Below are positions 25,377-45,042 of a stretch of 64,000 nucleotides of DNA, piece after piece. How positions within the stretch are numbered: position 1 is the stretch's first letter; each line of letters begins with the position of its first letter. The stretch comes from a bacterium (lineage in GTDB: Bacteria > DRYD01), in assembly GCA_030549815.1 (NCBI GenBank), contig JAUQQQ010000005.1:6739-70738 (forward strand). The letters are read 5' to 3'. A program made the position numbers and the translations under genes. The notes under the pieces are model-generated. The model worked only from the letters and a program-made list of their open reading frames with translations, had not been told where the DNA came from and did not search any database.

Positions 25377-25496
25377 AAGTACCATTTTGTCTTAAAAAAT
25401 CATCCTAAAAATGTAAAAAAAATGTAAAAAAATTTTCAATCTATTAGGGAAAAAACAAAAAATAACAAAATTTAAAATAGAGGGTGTTACTATAAA

Positions 25497-27095
25497 ATGA
25501 TAAAAAAAAAAGAAGGATTTTACCTTTACTTATGGTTAGGACTTTTTGCATTATTTATTAGTTTTTTTGGTATCGTTCTATTCAATTACGTAGGAGCGGA
25601 TATCAAAGCAACTAGGAGCATTTACCAAGACTCCAGACTCTACTATGATATAAAATCAATTCTAGTATCAATTACAGAAATATACAGAGAAAGTAACTTC
25701 AACTCCCCCAATAACCCTTCAATTCGAAGAGGACAGTATGAATACAAAAATGGATCAAAAAGATATCAAGTTGATTATGAAATCAATCCATTAAATAGCA
25801 CCCATTTACTAATTGAAATTCATGAGAATAACAAACTACGGGCAAGAGGAATTGTTAAATGGAGAGAAAACATAAGTGATTTTGCTCTTATTACAGCAAA
25901 AAATAATGAAGAGTTTAAATCAAATTCATTCTATTCTTCTGCAGCAATTTTCTCTAACACCATAACTATACCCGAAACTAACAGATTTATTTTTAATAAA
26001 GTAGTAATAAATGAAGATACAATAGTAAATGGAATAGGTCCACTTAATAACCTACAGGAAATGCAAAAATTTGCTCAATTTATCGAAATTAATAACTCTC
26101 TTAACGATATAATTCAATACTATAATCAAGTACTAAACGAAGTATATGACAAAATTGTTACACCCTTAAACTCAACATATACTTCGCAATACTCTAATGC
26201 AGGAAATGTTGTTTTAACACCATATGGAGGAATATATATCAAACGAATAAATACACTTCAAGCAATAAAAATAAACTTCTCAATTCAAAATGGTAATCAA
26301 ATCATAGAATTCTTCGGAATACAAAATAATAATATTACCGGTCGCATTGCAACATTTAAACATATATTACAAGAACCTGACGTAGTTACCTTACAAAATG
26401 GAAATGAAGTAATTTCAAATGATAATACCATAATCAATAGCATTAGATCTCATAACCCCTACATAGTAATAAACCCCATATCAAAAATATTACAACACAA
26501 TGATCTTTATACAATCTACACAAACCTAAATATGGATAACACCATAATATACAGCGAAATACCTTTAGAAATAGGAAGTGATGGTCCTGACAACCCTAAT
26601 AATGCTACAATAAACACAAAAATAATGATAATAACTCCTAACAATATTATCATCAAAAATAACATCCTTTACTCCCACTTTAATAATCTATCAAATTACA
26701 TTAATCAAATAGAAAACAATAATACAATCAATTTAAGAGATAGTAACGATCTATTACGAATAATAGCAGATAACATAACTTTTGATACATCTGAATTCCA
26801 ACAAACTGATACTAACAAAAATACAATGTGCTTGAATGGACAGTTTGTAGCAATGTTTAGTAGAAATAGTCAAGTGAGAATTACTAACCCTAGCAACATT
26901 TCCAATTTCTTCATCTTTGGATCTCTACAAGCATCACAGAGAATGAACTTTGATCAAAATTTTCAAGAAAGATATATATTAGATGGAAGACTTACTACTT
27001 TAGACCCAACTCTATCAATTATTATTGATAACATAGACAATTCTATATACCTTAATAAAGTGAGTGTCTTGGGAATAGAAATATTGAGCAAATAA
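25497..27095 (+). CDS. N-rich membrane-anchored / secreted protein (hypothetical)
   Basis: 532 aa. N-terminal hydrophobic anchor (FYLYLWLGLFALFISFFGIVLF). Asn/Ile-rich, beta-rich composition. It sits immediately upstream of the prepilin-Hint gene. Confidence 0.45.
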   Translation: MIKKKEGFYLYLWLGLFALFISFFGIVLFNYVGADIKATRSIYQDSRLYYDIKSILVSITEIYRESNFNSPNNPSIRRGQYEYKNGSKRYQVDYEINPLNSTHLLIEIHENNKLRARGIVKWRENISDFALITAKNNEEFKSNSFYSSAAIFSNTITIPETNRFIFNKVVINEDTIVNGIGPLNNLQEMQKFAQFIEINNSLNDIIQYYNQVLNEVYDKIVTPLNSTYTSQYSNAGNVVLTPYGGIYIKRINTLQAIKINFSIQNGNQIIEFFGIQNNNITGRIATFKHILQEPDVVTLQNGNEVISNDNTIINSIRSHNPYIVINPISKILQHNDLYTIYTNLNMDNTIIYSEIPLEIGSDGPDNPNNATINTKIMIITPNNIIIKNNILYSHFNNLSNYINQIENNNTINLRDSNDLLRIIADNITFDTSEFQQTDTNKNTMCLNGQFVAMFSRNSQVRITNPSNISNFFIFGSLQASQRMNFDQNFQERYILDGRLTTLDPTLSIIIDNIDNSIYLNKVSVLGIEILSK

Positions 27096-27107
27096 GGGGG
27101 TGAATTT

Positions 27108-28385
27108 ATGAAAACAAAAAAAGGAATTACTATCGTTGAAGTCGTAATTAGTTTTACTATTGCTCTTATACTCATCATGTCCCTATATATGATAGTTTAC
27201 TGGGGAACTAATACAAACACCATAAACAATAAAATAATAAGAATAAACAACGCAATGACTTTTATTCAACAAGATATGCTTAATAATACACCATTGTATT
27301 TCGAATTACAATCAAACGGTTCCATAAACCCTAAGCAAAATATCAACGATATATTAAAAACAAGATTACAACAATTCAAGTTAAATGATCCCATCATCAT
27401 AAACGTGAGATTGGTAAGCTTTCAAAGAGAAAGAATAAACAATTCATTACAACAATTCAATAATATATATAGAGTAAGGATAGAAATAGAATGGATACAT
27501 AAAGGACAAAATAGACGTTATCAAACCGATTTTCTTATTAGCGACTATAGCCTAAAAAAAATCTCTTCCTCACAAGATCCCGTATCAACCAGCCTTAGGA
27601 TTAATTTACCAAATAACTACTATTCGCCCGTAATCAGAGAAACCTATGTTGATGGCATTCCTGGTGTTAATCCAGGCACTCCTTCTAGTCCAGGCACTCC
27701 TTCTGACCCAGGCACTCCTTCTGACCCAGGCACTCCTTCTGACCCAGGCACTCCTTCTGACCCAGGCACTCCTTCTGAGCCAGGCACCCCCTCTGACCCA
27801 GGTGGAGGTTTTGGAGGTGGAGGATGTTTTGAAAAAGGAACACTTATACCTGTCTGCAAAAATGGAAAAATTTTAACCAAAAATATTGAAGATATAAATG
27901 AGCAAGATTTTGTTGTATCTTTCCATAATAACCAAATTATGCCCATAAAAGTCGAAAAGTTACATGCACACGAAGGAGAATTCCAAATTGTTCAAATTCA
28001 AACCAAATCAGGATTGACCTTCAGAGCAACACATAATCATCCTGCAATAGTTAATAACTGTCTCAGAAAATTTGGAAAGCTACAAATTGGAGACTATATC
28101 ACTATTCTAAAAGATAATCAAATAATTACCGACCAGATATCCAATATATCCACACAAATAATCAAAGGTAAAGTATATTCTATTGAGATTGAATCAAATG
28201 AAAAATATTGCTATAACCACTTTATAGGAAATAATGATGCTTTTATGTTAGTAAACTGTGGTATGATGAAAATTAGTAAAGTATTAGCTAATCTATGTGT
28301 TTCAACTCTTTCATTAATTACAAGCATAGCTATAGGAACAGTAGTTAAAACCTATGGATTACCAGGAGGTTCACAAACAAAATAA
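27108..28385 (+). CDS. Prepilin-type N-terminal domain protein with a (PGTPSD)7 linker, a Hint (intein/Hedgehog-like) autoprocessing domain and a C-terminal hydrophobic tail
   Basis: SD AAGGGGGTG upstream. N-terminus KKG|ITIVEVVISFTIALILIM is the class III signal / prepilin cleavage-methylation motif. The Hint domain spans 27825-28256. It opens with GGGG|CFEKGTLIPV (Gly-Cys-Phe), includes the TxxH block (RATHNHPA) and ends VYSIEIESNEKYCYNHFIGNNDAFMLVN|C. Confidence 0.65.
   Translation: MKTKKGITIVEVVISFTIALILIMSLYMIVYWGTNTNTINNKIIRINNAMTFIQQDMLNNTPLYFELQSNGSINPKQNINDILKTRLQQFKLNDPIIINVRLVSFQRERINNSLQQFNNIYRVRIEIEWIHKGQNRRYQTDFLISDYSLKKISSSQDPVSTSLRINLPNNYYSPVIRETYVDGIPGVNPGTPSSPGTPSDPGTPSDPGTPSDPGTPSDPGTPSEPGTPSDPGGGFGGGGCFEKGTLIPVCKNGKILTKNIEDINEQDFVVSFHNNQIMPIKVEKLHAHEGEFQIVQIQTKSGLTFRATHNHPAIVNNCLRKFGKLQIGDYITILKDNQIITDQISNISTQIIKGKVYSIEIESNEKYCYNHFIGNNDAFMLVNCGMMKISKVLANLCVSTLSLITSIAIGTVVKTYGLPGGSQTK
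27672..27797 (+). repeat. Perfect or near-perfect 18-nt tandem repeat x7 (coding, PGTPS[D/S/E])
   Basis: ccaggcactccttctgac repeated 7 times with 2-3 single-nucleotide variants. In frame inside the 27108-28385 CDS. It creates spurious ORFs on both strands (27644-27946, 27646-27876). Confidence 0.9.
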
Positions 28386-28617
28386 TAAAAAAGATACTAT
28401 AGAGAAATTCCACGTAATGATAAATTACTAAAGAAATCAATACACATCTAAACTATAACCAAAGATTCATGATCACCATTTTCATTTTTTTAACCCTTCC
28501 AGTTTTCTTTCTACACTTTTTAAAGATAATTTTAGTTTATAGATAATTTTGTATGTTTACCATGAAACATCTATTTGTTTTGATAAAAATTTATTATCTA
28601 TTAAACCTTATAAAATC

Positions 28618-28836
28618 TCAATATTTCTTTTCTAAAATTGCATTAAATTCATTTTCACAATCACAGCAACATTTGCAATAGTTACAGATTGAACATTTTA
28701 TACCATAACAATCCAAACAATCACATTCTTCTTTATTTTTGCAAGAACAGTATCCACTTTCTGTACAACATCTACAGTTGTATCCTTCGCATTTACAATT
28801 CCTACACTTACATAATAACATGATTAAGTTCATCAA
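28618..28836 (-). CDS. Small Cys-rich protein (22 Cys in 72 aa), hypothetical
   Basis: Uninterrupted minus-strand frame in otherwise stop-dense AT-rich DNA. CxC/CC/CxxC motifs throughout (CKCRNCKCEGYNCRCCTESGYCSCKNKEECDCLDCYGIKCSICNYCKCCCDC). Start is TTG at 28836 or ATG at 28833. There is no strong SD, so coding status is uncertain. Confidence 0.4.
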   Translation of the reverse strand: MMNLIMLLCKCRNCKCEGYNCRCCTESGYCSCKNKEECDCLDCYGIKCSICNYCKCCCDCENEFNAILEKKY

Positions 28837-29007
28837 AAAACGTAGATTATCAACAATCCTTTCCTGATAACCTCACAATGGTTCGGACATTTTGTCATAA
28901 TAAAACCCTTCACTTTACCACTACTTTAGTGATAACCAAATTATAAATCAAACTCTTTAACCCGCACATGTATACCAGCATTCTTGCAATGATTTTATTA
29001 AAAAATT

Positions 29008-35894: not shown

Positions 35895-36869
35895 ATGGAA
35901 GCAACGATAGATTTCAAATTAGCCGATAAAGTGTCAAAATTGATAGATGAAGTTAATAAAGTGATCGTGGGCCAGAGAAGTGTTATTTTGAAATGTATCT
36001 TAGCATTACTTGTTGATGGTAATGTTCTAGTAGAAGGTGTTCCTGGTTTAGCCAAAACATTGATTTTTAAAACCTTAGCTTATGCAACAGGTGGAACATT
36101 CAGGAGAATTCAATTCACACCCGATTTACTACCAGCAGACATAACAGGAACAAGGGTTTTCAACCCCCAAACATTAAATTTTGAAGTAGTATTGGGTCCC
36201 ATATTCGCAAACTTTGTTTTAGCAGATGAGATAAATAGAGCTCCTGCAAAAGTACAAAGTGCTCTTTTGGAAGGAATGCAAGAAAAACAAGTAACCATAG
36301 GAAACCAAACTTTCCCATTGCCACGGCCATTCATAGTAATGGCTACACAAAACCCCATAGAAAGTGAAGGAACTTATCCACTTCCAGAAGCCCAATTGGA
36401 TCGCTTCATAATGAAAGTTAAAATAGATTACCCTACTTTTGTTGAAGAAAAGGAAATACTAAGACGAATGCAAAGTAATTTTGACGTACCTAAGGTGGAA
36501 AAAGTAATAGAAATAAACGAAATCATAGATTTACAAATGGAAGTCGAGAAAATAAAGGTAAGCACTAAGATTGAAGATTATATAACAAAACTCGTTTTTA
36601 TTACAAGAAAACCACATTTATATGGTTTAAATGCTTTATCTAAGTATATAATGTATGGAGCAAGTCCAAGGGCAACACTGGCATTTATCAAGCTCTCTAA
36701 AGCCCTTGCTTTCATAGACAAAAGGAGCTTCGTAATACCAGAAGATATCGAATATCTCGCTTTCGACGTATTAAGACATAGAATAATCCTAACTTATGAA
36801 GCACAAGCAGAAAACATAACAACAGAAGATATAATCCTTACAATCATTAAATCACTACCTAAAGTATGA
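35895..36869 (+). CDS. MoxR-family AAA+ ATPase
   Basis: VLVEGVPGLAKT Walker A. FRRIQFTPDLLPADITG (the MoxR signature). LADEINRAPAKVQSALLEGMQE and ATQNPIESEGTYPLPEAQLDRF. Confidence 0.85.
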   Translation: MEATIDFKLADKVSKLIDEVNKVIVGQRSVILKCILALLVDGNVLVEGVPGLAKTLIFKTLAYATGGTFRRIQFTPDLLPADITGTRVFNPQTLNFEVVLGPIFANFVLADEINRAPAKVQSALLEGMQEKQVTIGNQTFPLPRPFIVMATQNPIESEGTYPLPEAQLDRFIMKVKIDYPTFVEEKEILRRMQSNFDVPKVEKVIEINEIIDLQMEVEKIKVSTKIEDYITKLVFITRKPHLYGLNALSKYIMYGASPRATLAFIKLSKALAFIDKRSFVIPEDIEYLAFDVLRHRIILTYEAQAENITTEDIILTIIKSLPKV

Positions 36870-41801: not shown

Positions 41802-43491
41802 ATGAAAAAAAAGAAAGGTATAGTTTTAATGATAACCATTGCATTTTTAACAGTTCTAATAGCAGTTGTAATTCTTGCCCTTAACTCTTACAACTCAAGG
41901 TTTTCTTCAAACAATATAGAAAGATATTATGTAATGCAAAACATTGCAAAAGGTGCTTTAAATAGAGCTATCGCTCAATTGTATGCCAACCCTGGATGAA
42001 ATGGAGAAACATTCACATACAGAACTCCCTTAAGAAATTATAACGTTACAACAACAGTTACACCCCAGGGATTCCCCTCAGATACAGTTATAATAAACAT
42101 CGCTGTTTCAAATGGCAGAAATAATATAGACTTAGTTGGAATAGCGCAAGTTGACATTCTTTTTGATCCTGGGTCATTTGCAATAGCAACAGGCTCAAAC
42201 ATAACAACACAAGGAGGAAACCAATTGGTATTTACCTCTGACGACCCAAATGTAAGACTAAAAATATTAACAACTCAAGATATAACATGGGTTAGAGACT
42301 ATCAAAATAATAACATCCAAGCACAAAACTATTCTATAGACCAAGCTATTGAAACTCAGGAAATAAGCACAATAATAGCAAAAAAGTATTACAGGAAGAG
42401 GGACAGTAGACGCAGCAATAGCACAACAAATCGATCCAAATTTTAAACAAAGATTACAAAGCAACAATGATTTAGTAATAGATAACATAAATATAACTCC
42501 AGAATTTATAGAACAAAAATTTAGAACTTTTGTCGGCTCATTCCCAAATTTTGGAACAATCACAAATACAGGTAGCCTCTCATTTACAAACAGTGAAGCC
42601 ATTGCACAACCAGGTGTTAAATACATAAACCCATCTATACCCAATCAAGGAGTAATCTATATAACATCTCCTGGAGAATATTACTTCGATGGAAGTTTAG
42701 ATCTACAAGGCCAAGGAAATCTTAATATGGGTAGAATCCAAGTAAGATTACCAAAAGCAGGAGAAGGGCAACTATATGATAATTACAGAAACTTCTTTAA
42801 TTACGTTAGAACAACATTTGGTAATAATTCAAAATATACCTTTGATGGGACAATATATACAAACAACCCACCAGGGGGACAATACACAGCTAAAATAAGA
42901 CCTTTAAGTGAAGCCCCACAAGATGCACTACCCATATTTATACAGGCAAACTACTCAGATACAACAACAAGCAGCGGTAGTGGTGGAGGTAGAGGCAGAG
43001 GTGGTGGAGGAAGTGGCAACGCAACAACAACAATAATAGACCCAGACTTTTATTTCAGAACTAATGGGAAAACAGGCCAAAATTTCGCTTTTTACGGTAA
43101 TAAAAAAGCTGGTATTAATATATATATAAACGGTAATGTACAAGTAGGCGGTAATGCTATTATTAATCAAATAGATACAGATAGAAGCAATTTAACCTAC
43201 AATACACTCTTAAGGAAACCATCAACACTAAGGTTATATTTAGCATCAGGATACAACTTCACAGCAGGGAATGCTACAATAAATGCTGCTATAATTACCG
43301 ATAATTTCAGGATAAATGGAAATCCAACAATATACGGTGCAATGTATGGAATGAATTTTTCAAATAACAATAATTCCTCATATAGTTTCGCAGGATCAAT
43401 AACATTTACATATGATTCATCATTATTATCAAGAAGTCAAAATAGACAGAGGTTCAACCCAAGGTTGCTACACGTTTATATCCAACAATAA
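41802..43491 (+). pseudogene. Large prepilin-type N-terminal domain protein, disrupted by an in-frame TGA (41997-41999) and a frameshift at an A6 run (about 42380-42385)
   Basis: SD AAGGGGG. N-terminus KKKG|IVLMITIAFLTVLIAVVIL is a prepilin-type leader. ORFs 41802-41999 and 42225-42446 are in the same frame, separated only by one TGA. The frame 42379-43491 continues the protein after a +1/-1 shift. Merged length would be about 560 aa. Confidence 0.5.
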
Positions 43492-43505
43492 TGAAGGAGG
43501 AAAAA

Positions 43506-43934
43506 ATGAGAAAGAAAAAAGGATTCTCAATTTTAGAAGTATTAGTATCTTTTCTAATAGTAGTAATTGCCATATTTGGAGTGGTGAATTTTATCCTTTT
43601 TTACTCAAATTTTAATAGATCCTTAGAAAATAGGATACTCACATATACAATTGCCAACCAAGTATTAAACAACTTACTTTCAAGACCATACAATGACTTA
43701 AGAAATCTGGTAAATCAAAGTATAACAATAACTCGCGGAAATATAACGATTACATATACTGTAAATGAAAGAGCTTTTAGACCCATATGGTTACCCGTGG
43801 GATCCAATGAAAATATGCTAATAGAAATCTACGTCAATGCAACATATGTTGACAAAGGTAGAACGATTTCTAACATAAGGCTTTGGGGAACAAAATACAG
43901 ATGGGAGGGTATTATTAATGAAAGACCACAATAA
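43506..43934 (+). CDS. Small prepilin-type N-terminal cleavage/methylation domain protein (minor pilin / pseudopilin-like)
   Basis: AAGGAGG SD 6 nt before the ATG at 43506. KKG|FSILEVLVSFLIVVIAIFG matches the prepilin motif, with Glu at +5. Confidence 0.6.
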   Translation: MRKKKGFSILEVLVSFLIVVIAIFGVVNFILFYSNFNRSLENRILTYTIANQVLNNLLSRPYNDLRNLVNQSITITRGNITITYTVNERAFRPIWLPVGSNENMLIEIYVNATYVDKGRTISNIRLWGTKYRWEGIINERPQ

Positions 43935-45042
43935 AAAAGGATTATCATTAGCTGAAACCATCATAGCAATTGGCTTAGCATCATTACTAATGATTATAAC
44001 ATACACACTATTTGATATAACAATGAAAAACTACTATAGGAACGAAGAATTAAACTCTAATTTAGATAGAGCAAGAAAAATAGTCCCAATTATTAATAGA
44101 CATTTACTAAATGCAGGCTTTGGATTCCCTTCAGGAGCTACTTTTGCAGTAGTATCGGCAGGAACAGGAAATGTAATAACAAGCAATGAAAGAGCAGATA
44201 TACTCTTTTTAGCAGATTATACCGCATTTAACAATACCCCAACAAATATAAGAAGAAGAGACATATTCTTTACTCCACGGAGTTTTTCAACATCCGGAAA
44301 CCAGTTTAATCTACAAATTGATAGATTAAATGGAGAAGATGATGGAACTATAGATAACAACTACTTTGGATTAAATATAAATAGTTTTAGAGTAGGTAGC
44401 GGTATAATTTTCCTTTCTTACTACATATACAATCCATCATCACCTTCTCCCGCACCTAATAACAGTATAAGACAAAACTTTGCTCAAATAAAAGCCGTAG
44501 GAATAATAACTGCCAGGAATGGTAATCAATTAAGAGGAGAAATCATAGGACCACATAGGCTTTCTATTGCCGATAATTTTCCAGCAGCATATCAAATGGT
44601 TACTTCTAATGGAATAACAAATTTCAGCGGCGTTATACCGGCTATAATTATAGGTATAAATGATAACAATGACTCCCCATTGTTTATAAATAGCTCAAGG
44701 AATAATCAAAGAGTTTTAGATGATGCAGCTTTTTTTAAAATTTTCTATAGATACAATGATGGAACAGTTGTATTCTCTCAAGATACATTAACAAATAATA
44801 ATCAAAACATTGTGCTTGATTCTTCAGCAGTCTTACAAAGGTATGTCGATAGCATAGGATATGTTTTAATATTTAGAGAAAGAAGGAGAAGGACAGATGC
44901 AAACTGGATGCAACGTAATATAAGGTTTGTTACAAGAGGGATAGATGTACAATTCACATTTAACAACGAAAGAAGAACACACCATATATTAAGTGATGAA
45001 GTAAAATTATTCAACATATACAACAGGAATAATTTCCAATGA
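43918..45042 (+). CDS. Prepilin-type N-terminal cleavage/methylation domain protein (pseudopilin-like, 374 aa)
   Basis: KKG|LSLAETIIAIGLASLLMII prepilin motif with Glu at +5. Overlaps the upstream gene by 17 nt (operonic). Confidence 0.6.
   Translation: MKDHNKKGLSLAETIIAIGLASLLMIITYTLFDITMKNYYRNEELNSNLDRARKIVPIINRHLLNAGFGFPSGATFAVVSAGTGNVITSNERADILFLADYTAFNNTPTNIRRRDIFFTPRSFSTSGNQFNLQIDRLNGEDDGTIDNNYFGLNINSFRVGSGIIFLSYYIYNPSSPSPAPNNSIRQNFAQIKAVGIITARNGNQLRGEIIGPHRLSIADNFPAAYQMVTSNGITNFSGVIPAIIIGINDNNDSPLFINSSRNNQRVLDDAAFFKIFYRYNDGTVVFSQDTLTNNNQNIVLDSSAVLQRYVDSIGYVLIFRERRRRTDANWMQRNIRFVTRGIDVQFTFNNERRTHHILSDEVKLFNIYNRNNFQ

Follow-up and report, generated by a model that had tools for sequence, protein, structure and literature searches.

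A pilin-Hint fusion with a predicted membrane anchor in a relative of Candidatus Calescibacterium

Few subunits of surface filaments are as widespread as type IV pilins, and Hint chemistry underlies protein splicing as well as the cholesteroylation of Hedgehog proteins. In modular type IV pilins the pilin module is a carrier for a C-terminal module grafted onto it through a linker, as in PilB and PilC of S. sanguinis, and the self-cleaving S74/ICA module (IPR030392) is a frequent graft (PMC8179133). Among Hint domains, BIL domains are defined by the lack of a +1 nucleophile, and those of type A end in His-Asn (PMC4031507). Here we describe a gene that joins a pilin to a Hint domain. It lies in a window of 64,000 nucleotides (contig JAUQQQ010000005.1, positions 6,739 to 70,738; coordinates below are those of the window), and its product of 425 residues consists of a prepilin leader, a minor-pilin module, a repeat linker, a Hint domain of 144 residues, the dipeptide C384-G385, and one transmembrane helix. 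We lean toward the view, which is drawn from sequence comparison, that the protein is a minor pilin of a type IV filament system, and that its Hint domain and transmembrane helix would form a self-removing membrane anchor or timer, cut at G239|C240, and not a spliced intein.

The closest genome matches of the window, which has a G+C content of about 29%, are metagenome-assembled genomes of Candidatus Calescibacterium (phylum Calescibacteriota, formerly Calescamantes). This lineage has been reported in hot-spring streamer communities at ~80 °C (PMC11696919).

Hint domain, pilin module, and linker

The first-pass annotation of the window, made from the sequence alone, had recognized a complete Hint module behind the linker, and profile searches, sequence matches, and structure modeling bear this out. 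The NCBIfam model TIGR01445 (intein_Nterm) was passed marginally (24.6 bits, with a cut-off of 24.5), the Pfam model Intein_splicing matched at E = 1.9e-5 (25 bits, under its cut-off of 35.8), and the best sequence match obtained with phmmer was the KlbA intein 2jmz (E = 8e-7). Block A (CFEKGT) and block B (RATHNHP, with T308-x-x-H311) are both present, and a block G-like segment, FMLV[H/N], is recognizable ahead of a Cys or Ser. The two features singled out at first sight, a Cys1 in a G|CF context and a TxxH block, are in place, and C240, T308, and H311 are invariant in the 15 family sequences described below. Searches of the PDB with phmmer and hmmsearch returned intein matches only and no direct sequence alignment to the Hedgehog domain HhC. 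The Hedgehog-derived Pfam Hint model PF01079 (cut-off, 29.7) is passed by two homologues, P0006 (34.1 bits) and P0020 (34.4 bits).

An AlphaFold2 (AF2) model of the window protein, built on nine family sequences, showed a predicted local distance difference test (pLDDT) score of 80 to 96 across residues 240 to 385. A Foldseek search with the Hint part of this model gave 58 PDB matches at E < 1e-3, the best at E = 2.8e-8, with target-normalized TM scores of 0.7 to 0.84. Among the matches listed all are Hint domains, and these include mini-inteins (7oec and 1mi8), BIL domains (2lwy and 6y75), and Hedgehog HhC (6tyy and 1at0). The HhC matches have TM scores of 0.77 to 0.79, and the best of them is the D46H mutant 6tyy. 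Counted from Cys1, T308 is position 69 and H311 position 72, which we take, from an ungapped comparison, to be the positions in Drosophila HhC. A K-[LI]-[HN]-x-H motif that holds H286 and H288 (nucleotides 27963 to 27971) lies 20 to 22 residues upstream of T308, and these two residues would thus presumably adjoin the Hedgehog general base Asp46.

The open reading frame (ORF) is a real, conserved gene and not a chance one, since homologues of the same architecture exist and the Hint domain is under purifying selection. Its layout had been described correctly, and only details of the linker repeats, the tail length, and the prepilin score needed correction. The N-terminus reads MKTKKG|ITIVEVVISFTIALILIMSLYMIV, with Gly at −1, Ile at +1, and Glu at +5 (ITIVE), followed by a hydrophobic stretch of about 24 residues. 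The term “textbook” used earlier for this motif is slightly generous: the leader, the Gly at −1, and the Glu at +5 are as they should be, but the +1 residue is Ile and not Phe or Met, and the match to the Pfam model N_methyl stays below the gathering cut-off of 21.2 (17.8 to 19.9 bits, E = 5e-4 to 2e-3, the value of 5e-4 being obtained when the N-terminal domain was searched alone). Homologue P0006 exceeds this cut-off (22.0 bits). The NCBIfam scan of the window protein gave no prepilin-type model at E ≤ 1. Residues G6 (−1), T8 (+2), and E11 (+5) are shared by at least 90% of 18 aligned pilin modules and invariant in a set of 13 sequences.

Structure comparison of the pilin module recovered pilins as about 20 of the top 50 matches, including Thermus TTHA1222 (6.2), Neisseria PilV (6.0), Thermus PilA4 (5.7), EpsI/GspI (5.6), PilX (5.5), and XcpV (5.3). 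The modeled module thus appears to have a pilin fold, with a long N-terminal helix on an antiparallel beta-sheet; this support is only moderate, because Foldseek gave no significant match for the module. Both domain assignments, prepilin/pilin module and Hint module, are upheld.

The linker is disordered in the AF2 model (pLDDT below 40). Tandem Repeats Finder (TRF) reported 7.3 copies of a unit of 18 nt between 27672 and 27802 (93% matches). Seven perfect PGTPSD repeats had been announced, and there are indeed seven units followed by GGGFGGGG (residues 232 to 239), but the units are not identical: in order they read PGTPSS, PGTPSD four times, PGTPSE, and PGTPSD. The number of units is 4 in the orthologue of L004 and 13 in that of L015. 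Other orthologues have linkers of the types PPPP plus TTQQ, GGSGGGD, TTTAPTTTTAL, or GDPGGV, or a short PGTD form; both length and composition are hypervariable.

The tail that starts at C384 is 42 residues long, one more than first counted. A hydrophobic segment is present as described, but it spans about 22 residues only (Kyte-Doolittle 19-mer, 1.87 to 1.95), and the remainder is polar. AF2 predicts a helix at residues 391 to 415 with low confidence, and a tether of about 7 residues separates the Hint domain from the transmembrane helix. Every family member has a hydrophobic tail, but its sequence is poorly kept, with 25% identity between L013 and L020, as would be seen in a generic anchor. 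The tail was also compared by eye with the sorting signals LPXTG, PEP-CTERM, and GlyGly-CTERM, and no motif was seen, just a generic hydrophobic helix.

Family conservation and processing of the junctions

The homologue set was obtained from an exhaustive profile search of 1.84 billion representative proteins, a word-indexed search, and a metagenome scan. The profile search gave 2561 matches at E ≤ 1e-3. Nearly all of those listed cover the Hint part alone, and only a handful have the full pilin-linker-Hint-tail architecture. Homologues with this architecture do exist in related genomes, and 15 usable sequences could be aligned over Hint domain and tail. Residues C240, E242, K284, H288, I297, T299, R306, T308, N310, H311, K321, I344, V356, and G385 are invariant in this alignment. 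Position 384 is Cys or Ser in all members, and position 286 is His except in P0016, where it is Asn.

The ratio of nonsynonymous to synonymous substitution rates (dN/dS) of the Hint domain is 0.13 for the window and L015, 0.23 for L003 and L018, and 0.29 for L013 and L020. The corresponding amino acid identities of the Hint domain and of the pilin module are 0.97 and 0.93, 0.98 and 0.91, and 0.64 and 0.51, respectively. The Hint domain is under purifying selection, and in all three independent pairs it is more conserved than the pilin module.

These observations can be ordered into a putative sequence of events. To judge from its two hydrophobic segments, the protein would be inserted with the basic leader in the cytoplasm and the pilin, linker, and Hint domain in the periplasm, the C-terminal helix recrossing the membrane. 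Prepilin peptidase would remove the leader at G6|I7, as the motif suggests. Cys240, aided by Thr308 and His311, would turn the Gly239-Cys240 bond into a thioester through an N-to-S acyl shift, which is the known Hint mechanism to which the invariant residues point. Water or a small nucleophile or thiol would then resolve the thioester, freeing the pilin together with a linker that ends in GGGFGGGG and leaving the Hint-transmembrane remnant in the membrane. The Hint domain would stay membrane anchored after this N-terminal cut, because the Asn needed to free it from the tail is absent. Only after its release would the subunit be able to move from the membrane into the filament, together with the partner of 532 residues encoded upstream.

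A Hint domain that acts at the X|Cys240 junction, as was initially supposed, fits the data, given the invariance of Cys1, Thr308, His311, and other core residues in the 15 sequences and the purifying selection. The closest Hint relatives with a match reaching the C-terminus end in ILAHN or LVHN followed by 2 to 6 residues; such an ending would be the typical layout of N-terminally cleaving domains and favors the self-removing anchor.

On the C-terminal side, the protein reads FMLVN383|C384-G385. The Asn and the Cys that follows it had been taken for an intein-like splice junction, an interpretation that the alignment does not sustain: the Asn at position 383 is confined to the window, L004/P0001, and L015, a group with at least 84% identity, and the other 12 aligned sequences have His there. 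The codon of Asn383, AAC, is a one-base change from the family His (CAY-to-AAC). The family junction is thus [V/A]-H-[C/S]-G, with VNCG in the window, and the His-Asn pair is never complete, because the Asn of the window replaces the His of the family. The ungapped alignment to the AHN-ending relatives suggests either that the family has lost the Asn or that Cys/Ser384 now fills its position.

Some relatives have no Hint domain at all. The orthologue P0017 (188 residues, 49% identical to the window pilin module, on 23 contigs) has neither linker nor transmembrane peptide, and its C-terminus lies where the linker would start. In L006 its gene directly follows that of a full-length homologue of the partner (541 residues, E = 1e-69), and a convergent gene comes next. 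P0153 and P0136 are stand-alone Hint-less paralogues, and like P0017 they are genuinely Hint-less. The Hint-transmembrane module is therefore an add-on to the pilin, and the mature functional unit is the pilin module, because Hint-less orthologues in the same gene context end at the linker start. Pilin-only entries were also considered as a sign of phase variation in the repeats. This was rejected: at least P0167 represents an assembly break or frameshift in the repeat, and an out-of-frame Hint ORF follows in L010.

Two further relatives differ behind the pilin module. P0136 (L011, 4001 to 4651) has a Thr-rich linker and GGGSGGGGGGG, then the eight residues YIKPPQVM and a stop codon, with no transmembrane peptide. 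This end resembles the post-Hint residues of P0004 (VH|CGYIKQP) and may be the scar of a Hint-transmembrane deletion. In P0015 (272 residues), a homologue of the pilin module is followed by a linker rich in Thr and Ser and then, instead of the Hint domain and helix, by a C-terminal module rich in Cys, CPVCGQSLVTCSKCGQCLNCTKGQSC; the pilin module thus serves as a carrier of differing C-terminal modules.

Several points weigh against a self-removing anchor. Residue 239, at −1, is mostly Gly but also Ser, Val, or Ala in the 15-sequence alignment, and position 4 of block F is Ser, Ala, or Thr and not the usual Asp. The conserved [C/S]384-G385 is not required by simple N-terminal cleavage; residue 384 may carry a branched (thio)ester intermediate, or the dipeptide may have another role. 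A plain self-removing anchor has no obvious selective rationale, with Hint-less orthologues working without it. The Hint module can also be lost, as in L017 (4255 to 5465), where the linker of a decayed P0016-type copy is frameshifted and a deletion has taken away block G, the junction, and some of the tail. Pfam scans of 45 ORFs revealed no assembly ATPase, platform, secretin, or prepilin peptidase in the 64-kb window. Finally, cleavage is deduced from conserved residues alone.

No obvious benefit comes from plain cleavage, and the retention of the module despite the existence of plain pilins would be explained if the Gly239 thioester were passed, as in Hedgehog, to a lipid head group, an amine of the cell envelope, or a residue in the 532-residue partner, giving a lipidated or tethered pilin. 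We regard this as conceivable but rather unlikely, and the same holds for the hydrophobic tail as a counterpart of the sterol- or adduct-recognition region (SRR or ARR). The layout of X|Cys-Phe, Hint domain, and hydrophobic C-terminal region matches that of Hog (PMC2362128 for the SRR/ARR concept), P0006 and P0020 exceed the PF01079 cut-off, and HhC structures are among the fold matches, at the TM scores given above. Moreover, the tether of about 7 residues would place the active site at the membrane surface, and by established chemistry a poly-Gly stretch with a small −1 residue favors attack on the thioester. The invariant H288 and the nearly invariant H286, if they do adjoin the Asp46 position, would also speak for such a transfer. 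The tail is, however, conserved in hydrophobicity only, which argues against a specific adduct-binding site, and a lipidated C-terminus would hold the pilin in the membrane, seemingly at odds with filament assembly. In addition, no acceptor is identifiable, the Hint-less orthologues are without such a modification, and the searches gave no direct sequence alignment to Hedgehog.

The linker invites another explanation. Its 54 disordered residues could reach about 19 nm when extended, approximately the width of the periplasm, and its variation from 4 to 13 repeat units between strains is of the kind that a spacer selected for reach would show. The Hint domain could then be inactive or conditional, and the linker would permanently connect a minor pilin, at the priming stage or at the tip, with an anchor in the inner membrane. 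Such a tether would cap the length of the filament or keep it in place, and any Hint cleavage would amount to regulated release. The −1 residue and block F position 4, which are off the optimal intein consensus, agree with this. We nevertheless consider it improbable: strict conservation of Cys1 and TxxH together with purifying selection is not easily reconciled with a passive spacer, the linker of P0005 has just ~15 residues, and Hint domains with intact Cys1 and TxxH autoprocess in all studied cases (PMC4031507).

True splicing, which would excise the Hint domain and ligate pilin and linker to the CGMMK... transmembrane peptide to give a pilin with a C-terminal membrane anchor, is very improbable, although the window has G|C...N|C junctions, a Cys or Ser follows the Hint domain in all members, and the Asn variant is common to three independent assemblies (window, L004, and L015): canonical splicing is unlikely as the family function because Asn383 is not conserved beyond one clade, the His of the other 12 sequences being unable to form a succinimide, and because the Hint-less orthologues stop before the linker, and furthermore the penultimate-His/terminal-Asn pair is never complete, no “empty” allele of pilin plus transmembrane tail was found, P0017 having no such peptide, and a doubly anchored pilin could not polymerize. 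The option of splicing the pilin to the membrane peptide, raised in the first-pass annotation, is given up as the family function on these grounds.

Gene neighborhood and strain comparison

The coordinates of the features are collected in Table 1. Upstream of the pilin-Hint gene the order is minC, minD, minE, a membrane protein of 325 residues, and the 532-residue partner. The N-terminus of the partner is without Glu at +5 and resembles PilX/GspK-type subunits, and scans of this protein gave no Pfam or NCBIfam match. N-terminal homologues of the partner lie upstream of P0006-type genes in L003 (E = 2e-19) and L018, where a canonical prepilin of 207 to 208 residues stands between the partner homologue and the pilin-Hint gene. 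A second gene type (P0020; L013/L014 and L020/L021) is flanked by a protein of 222 to 229 residues and a canonical prepilin of 171 to 177 residues. All gene types with resolved flanks adjoin other prepilin-like genes.

Table 1. Position and strand of the pilin-Hint gene, its parts, and neighboring features in the window
Feature	Position	Strand	Remarks
Membrane protein, 325 aa	24399-25376	+	Between minE and partner gene
Partner gene, 532 aa	25497-27095	+	Pilin-like N-terminus KKKEG|FYLYLWLGLFALFISF; 12 nt before the pilin-Hint gene
Shine-Dalgarno sequence GGGGGTG	27096-27102	+	Read from the sequence; strong; ATG 5 nt downstream
Pilin-Hint ORF	27108-28385	+	425 aa; stop codon 28383-28385
Class III (prepilin) leader MKTKKG, residues 1-6	27108-27125	+	Predicted prepilin-peptidase site G6|I7
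Pilin module, residues 7-185	27126-27662	+	Hydrophobic alpha1-N 7-30, long alpha1 helix, 3-4-stranded antiparallel sheet
Disordered linker, residues 186-239	27663-27824	+	PGTPS[S/D/E] x7 at 27672-27797, then GGGFGGGG
Hint domain C240-N383, 144 aa	27825-28256	+	Cys1 = C240; block B T308/H311; block F VYSIEIE
Post-Hint dipeptide C384-G385	28257-28262	+	Family motif [C/S]-G-[Y/F/M]; Gly invariant (alignments)
Predicted single transmembrane helix, residues 392-413	28281-28346	+	Within the 42-aa tail, 28257-28382
Cys-rich ORF, 72 aa	28618-28836	-	Just downstream of the pilin-Hint gene
Asn/Ser-rich protein, 815 aa	29380-31827	-	N-terminal signal-like segment
MoxR-type AAA ATPase	35895-36869	+	9 kb downstream
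Second pilin-like cluster	41802-45042	+	Four ORFs; the first ones may be one frameshifted gene

The assembly L004, from another strain, is 97.6 to 98.1% identical to the window over the 21 kb compared, and the differences cluster at 25400 to 27800. In the partner gene dS is 0.34 and dN/dS 0.13, and in the pilin module the values are 0.08 and 0.24. The Hint domain and tail show no differences (dS 0), and neighboring genes have a dS of 0.03 to 0.05 and a dN/dS of 0.03 to 0.33. The linker differs by three repeat units, and the sequences are identical from 27763 to 29000. The edges of the divergence hot spot are sharp, one at the start of the partner gene and the other inside the linker repeats. 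The likeliest explanation is that partner and pilin module form a recombined or imported variable cassette with its right breakpoint in the linker repeats. This is consistent with partner and pilin being the exposed, exchangeable parts and the Hint-transmembrane module a non-exposed processing part. A special constraint on the identical Hint domain and tail was considered as well; a 1.2-kb identical tract at background divergence beside a recombinant cassette is the better explanation.

The remaining neighbors are noted for completeness. The second pilin-like cluster holds an ORF of 65 residues with the PilX-like N-terminus MKKKKGIVLMITIAFL, a Gly-rich protein of 254 residues matching DUF7305 (E = 1e-5), a canonical prepilin of 147 residues (KKKG|FSILEVLVSF; N_methyl, 22.8 bits), and a prepilin of 374 residues (KKG|LSLAETIIAIG). 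The ORF of 72 residues on the reverse strand contains about 21 Cys in CxxC/CC patterns (MMNLIMLLCKCRNCKCEGYNCRCC), has no Pfam match, and corresponds to no called gene in L004. It may encode a small protein rich in Cys, or it may be spurious. The protein of 815 residues has no Pfam match and a dN/dS of 0.33 between strains, and may be an outer-membrane or surface protein. The membrane protein of 325 residues has a weak DUF58 match, and a MoxR-type ATPase, a frequent partner of DUF58 proteins, is encoded downstream.

Other pilin-Hint fusions and known systems

Prepilin-type proteins unrelated to the one described here also carry Hint domains. P0064, P0105, and P0093 are above both the N_methyl and the PT-HINT Pfam cut-offs. 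The prepilin plus PT-HINT proteins P0133/P0179 and P0028 come from Candidatus Omnitrophota, and one unrelated protein of this kind has been named “polymorphic toxin-type HINT domain-containing protein” by NCBI. Like the present family, the fusions from Omnitrophota and other uncultured bacteria have a prepilin N-terminus and a pilin-like region, and a junction rich in Gly leads into their C-terminal |CF Hint domain. They differ in having GspG/PilA-like pilin modules and 1 to 3 tandem Hint domains ending in VHN|K/Q/A, and in having no transmembrane tail. Because their pilin modules are unrelated to this one, the pilin-Hint fusion arose more than once.

P0067 and P0072 also belong among the unrelated prepilin-type PT-HINT proteins, and P0028 continues with an extra C-terminal region. 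P0146 (209 residues) and P0085 (415 residues) have AQSILEYVIIMGVVAAAVVG N-termini, a PT-rich linker, poly-Gly, and a C-terminal Hint domain ending in CHN|R/K, with no transmembrane tail. By eye they are apparently Flp/Tad-type pilins, which would make them a third pilin class fused to Hint. A different arrangement is found in P0023-P0026, P0029, P0033-P0037, and many others, where a signal peptide ending in ARGGGG|CF directly precedes 3 to 5 Hint domains in tandem, each with VHNKGG|CF, and the C-terminal region is conserved (EESSxEQxQWYYxxxRA). Among Hint relatives outside the pilin family, the members of this tandem family are the closest, with E values down to 1e-41.

Full-text literature searches (Hint domain or intein with pilin or prepilin; Calescamantes with pili) returned no paper describing a Hint-pilin fusion and no pilin BIL with a C-terminal transmembrane anchor. 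The line “IPR012902 - PF07591 (PT-HINT), 1 protein” appears without comment in Dataset S1 of PMC8179133, and the architecture is absent from the text of that paper. The early remark that no Hint-pilin fusion had been described therefore stands as far as papers describing one are concerned, but has to be qualified by this line and by the unrelated metagenomic fusions.

The family offers a simple system in which to ask whether bacteria mature, time, or covalently modify pilus subunits by Hint thioester chemistry. It also raises the questions of how a Hint domain without the His-Asn pair but with a downstream Cys or Ser resolves its intermediates, and why several unrelated pilin lineages independently gained Hint modules. 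With 144 residues, a host living at ~80 °C, and a poly-Gly N-junction, the Hint domain might serve as a thermostable self-cleaving or ligation tag. Should the domain do no more than cleave, it would add neatly but incrementally to the known modular pilins and BIL-like domains.

Comparison with Hedgehog shows the same succession of cargo, X|Cys-Phe junction, Hint fold, and hydrophobic C-terminal region, with a conserved Cys1 and TxxH and no conserved C-terminal Asn. The present protein differs in being bacterial and predicted periplasmic with a type IV pilin as cargo, and it has a single generic transmembrane helix, as predicted, in place of the conserved SRR and no sequence-level alignment to HhC. 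By analogy, an anchored Hint domain that joins the C-terminal Gly of the pilin to a pilus partner, a lipid, or an amine of the envelope would be a bacterial counterpart of Hedgehog, a proposal that we put forward with considerable doubt. If it were true, pilus subunits would be lipidated or cross-linked by a chemistry not known for type IV filaments, and its occurrence in at least two unrelated pilin classes, and possibly in Flp-like pilins, would point to a general strategy of pilin C-terminal ligation.

BIL domains, which mainly cleave rather than splice (PMC4031507), are like the present domain embedded in bacterial proteins of the surface or the secretome outside the conserved housekeeping set, and the BIL structures 2lwy and 6y75 are among its best fold matches. 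Unlike in BIL domains, all members have a Cys or Ser behind the Hint domain, and none has the complete His-Asn pair. Assignment to type A BIL was rejected on this basis, the family junction having no His-Asn and a +1 nucleophile being present. BIL domains of type B are marked by a block G unlike that of inteins, by cleavage uncoupled from splicing, and by the lack of a +1 nucleophile; in the present family a block G-like segment can be recognized, with Cys or Ser behind it. With the class 1 mini-inteins (Ssp DnaB and Mja KlbA) the domain shares the fold, with blocks A, B, F, and G recognizable, and its best sequence match is 2jmz. However, there is no insertion into a conserved host, the C-extein is an anchor peptide, the Asn is not conserved, and the Hint-less relatives are truncated. 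A canonical class 1 intein was rejected: the +1 Cys or Ser is present, but there is no conserved Asn, and P0017 and P0136 are not contiguous-extein alleles. A PT-HINT toxin was likewise rejected, only the 42-residue anchor following the Hint domain and no toxin domain or immunity-like gene being seen. The initial judgment that the protein is neither a housekeeping-gene intein nor a toxin-tipped PT-HINT protein is confirmed by the lack of a conserved host protein and of a toxin domain.

In function the protein comes closest to the Hedgehog/Hog and BIL autoprocessing domains. With a pilin module, a linker, and a module not specific to the pilus, it is formally a modular type IV pilin as defined in PMC8179133. 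The known modules are displayed as adhesive or enzymatic effectors, whereas the module found here is an autoprocessing domain with its own anchor that is expected to be removed. Its unusual features are the membrane anchor of the Hint domain, a His-Asn pair that is never complete, and the Cys/Ser-Gly conserved behind the domain, and the membrane-anchored Hint pilin is an essentially undescribed combination of modular pilins with Hint/BIL autoprocessing.

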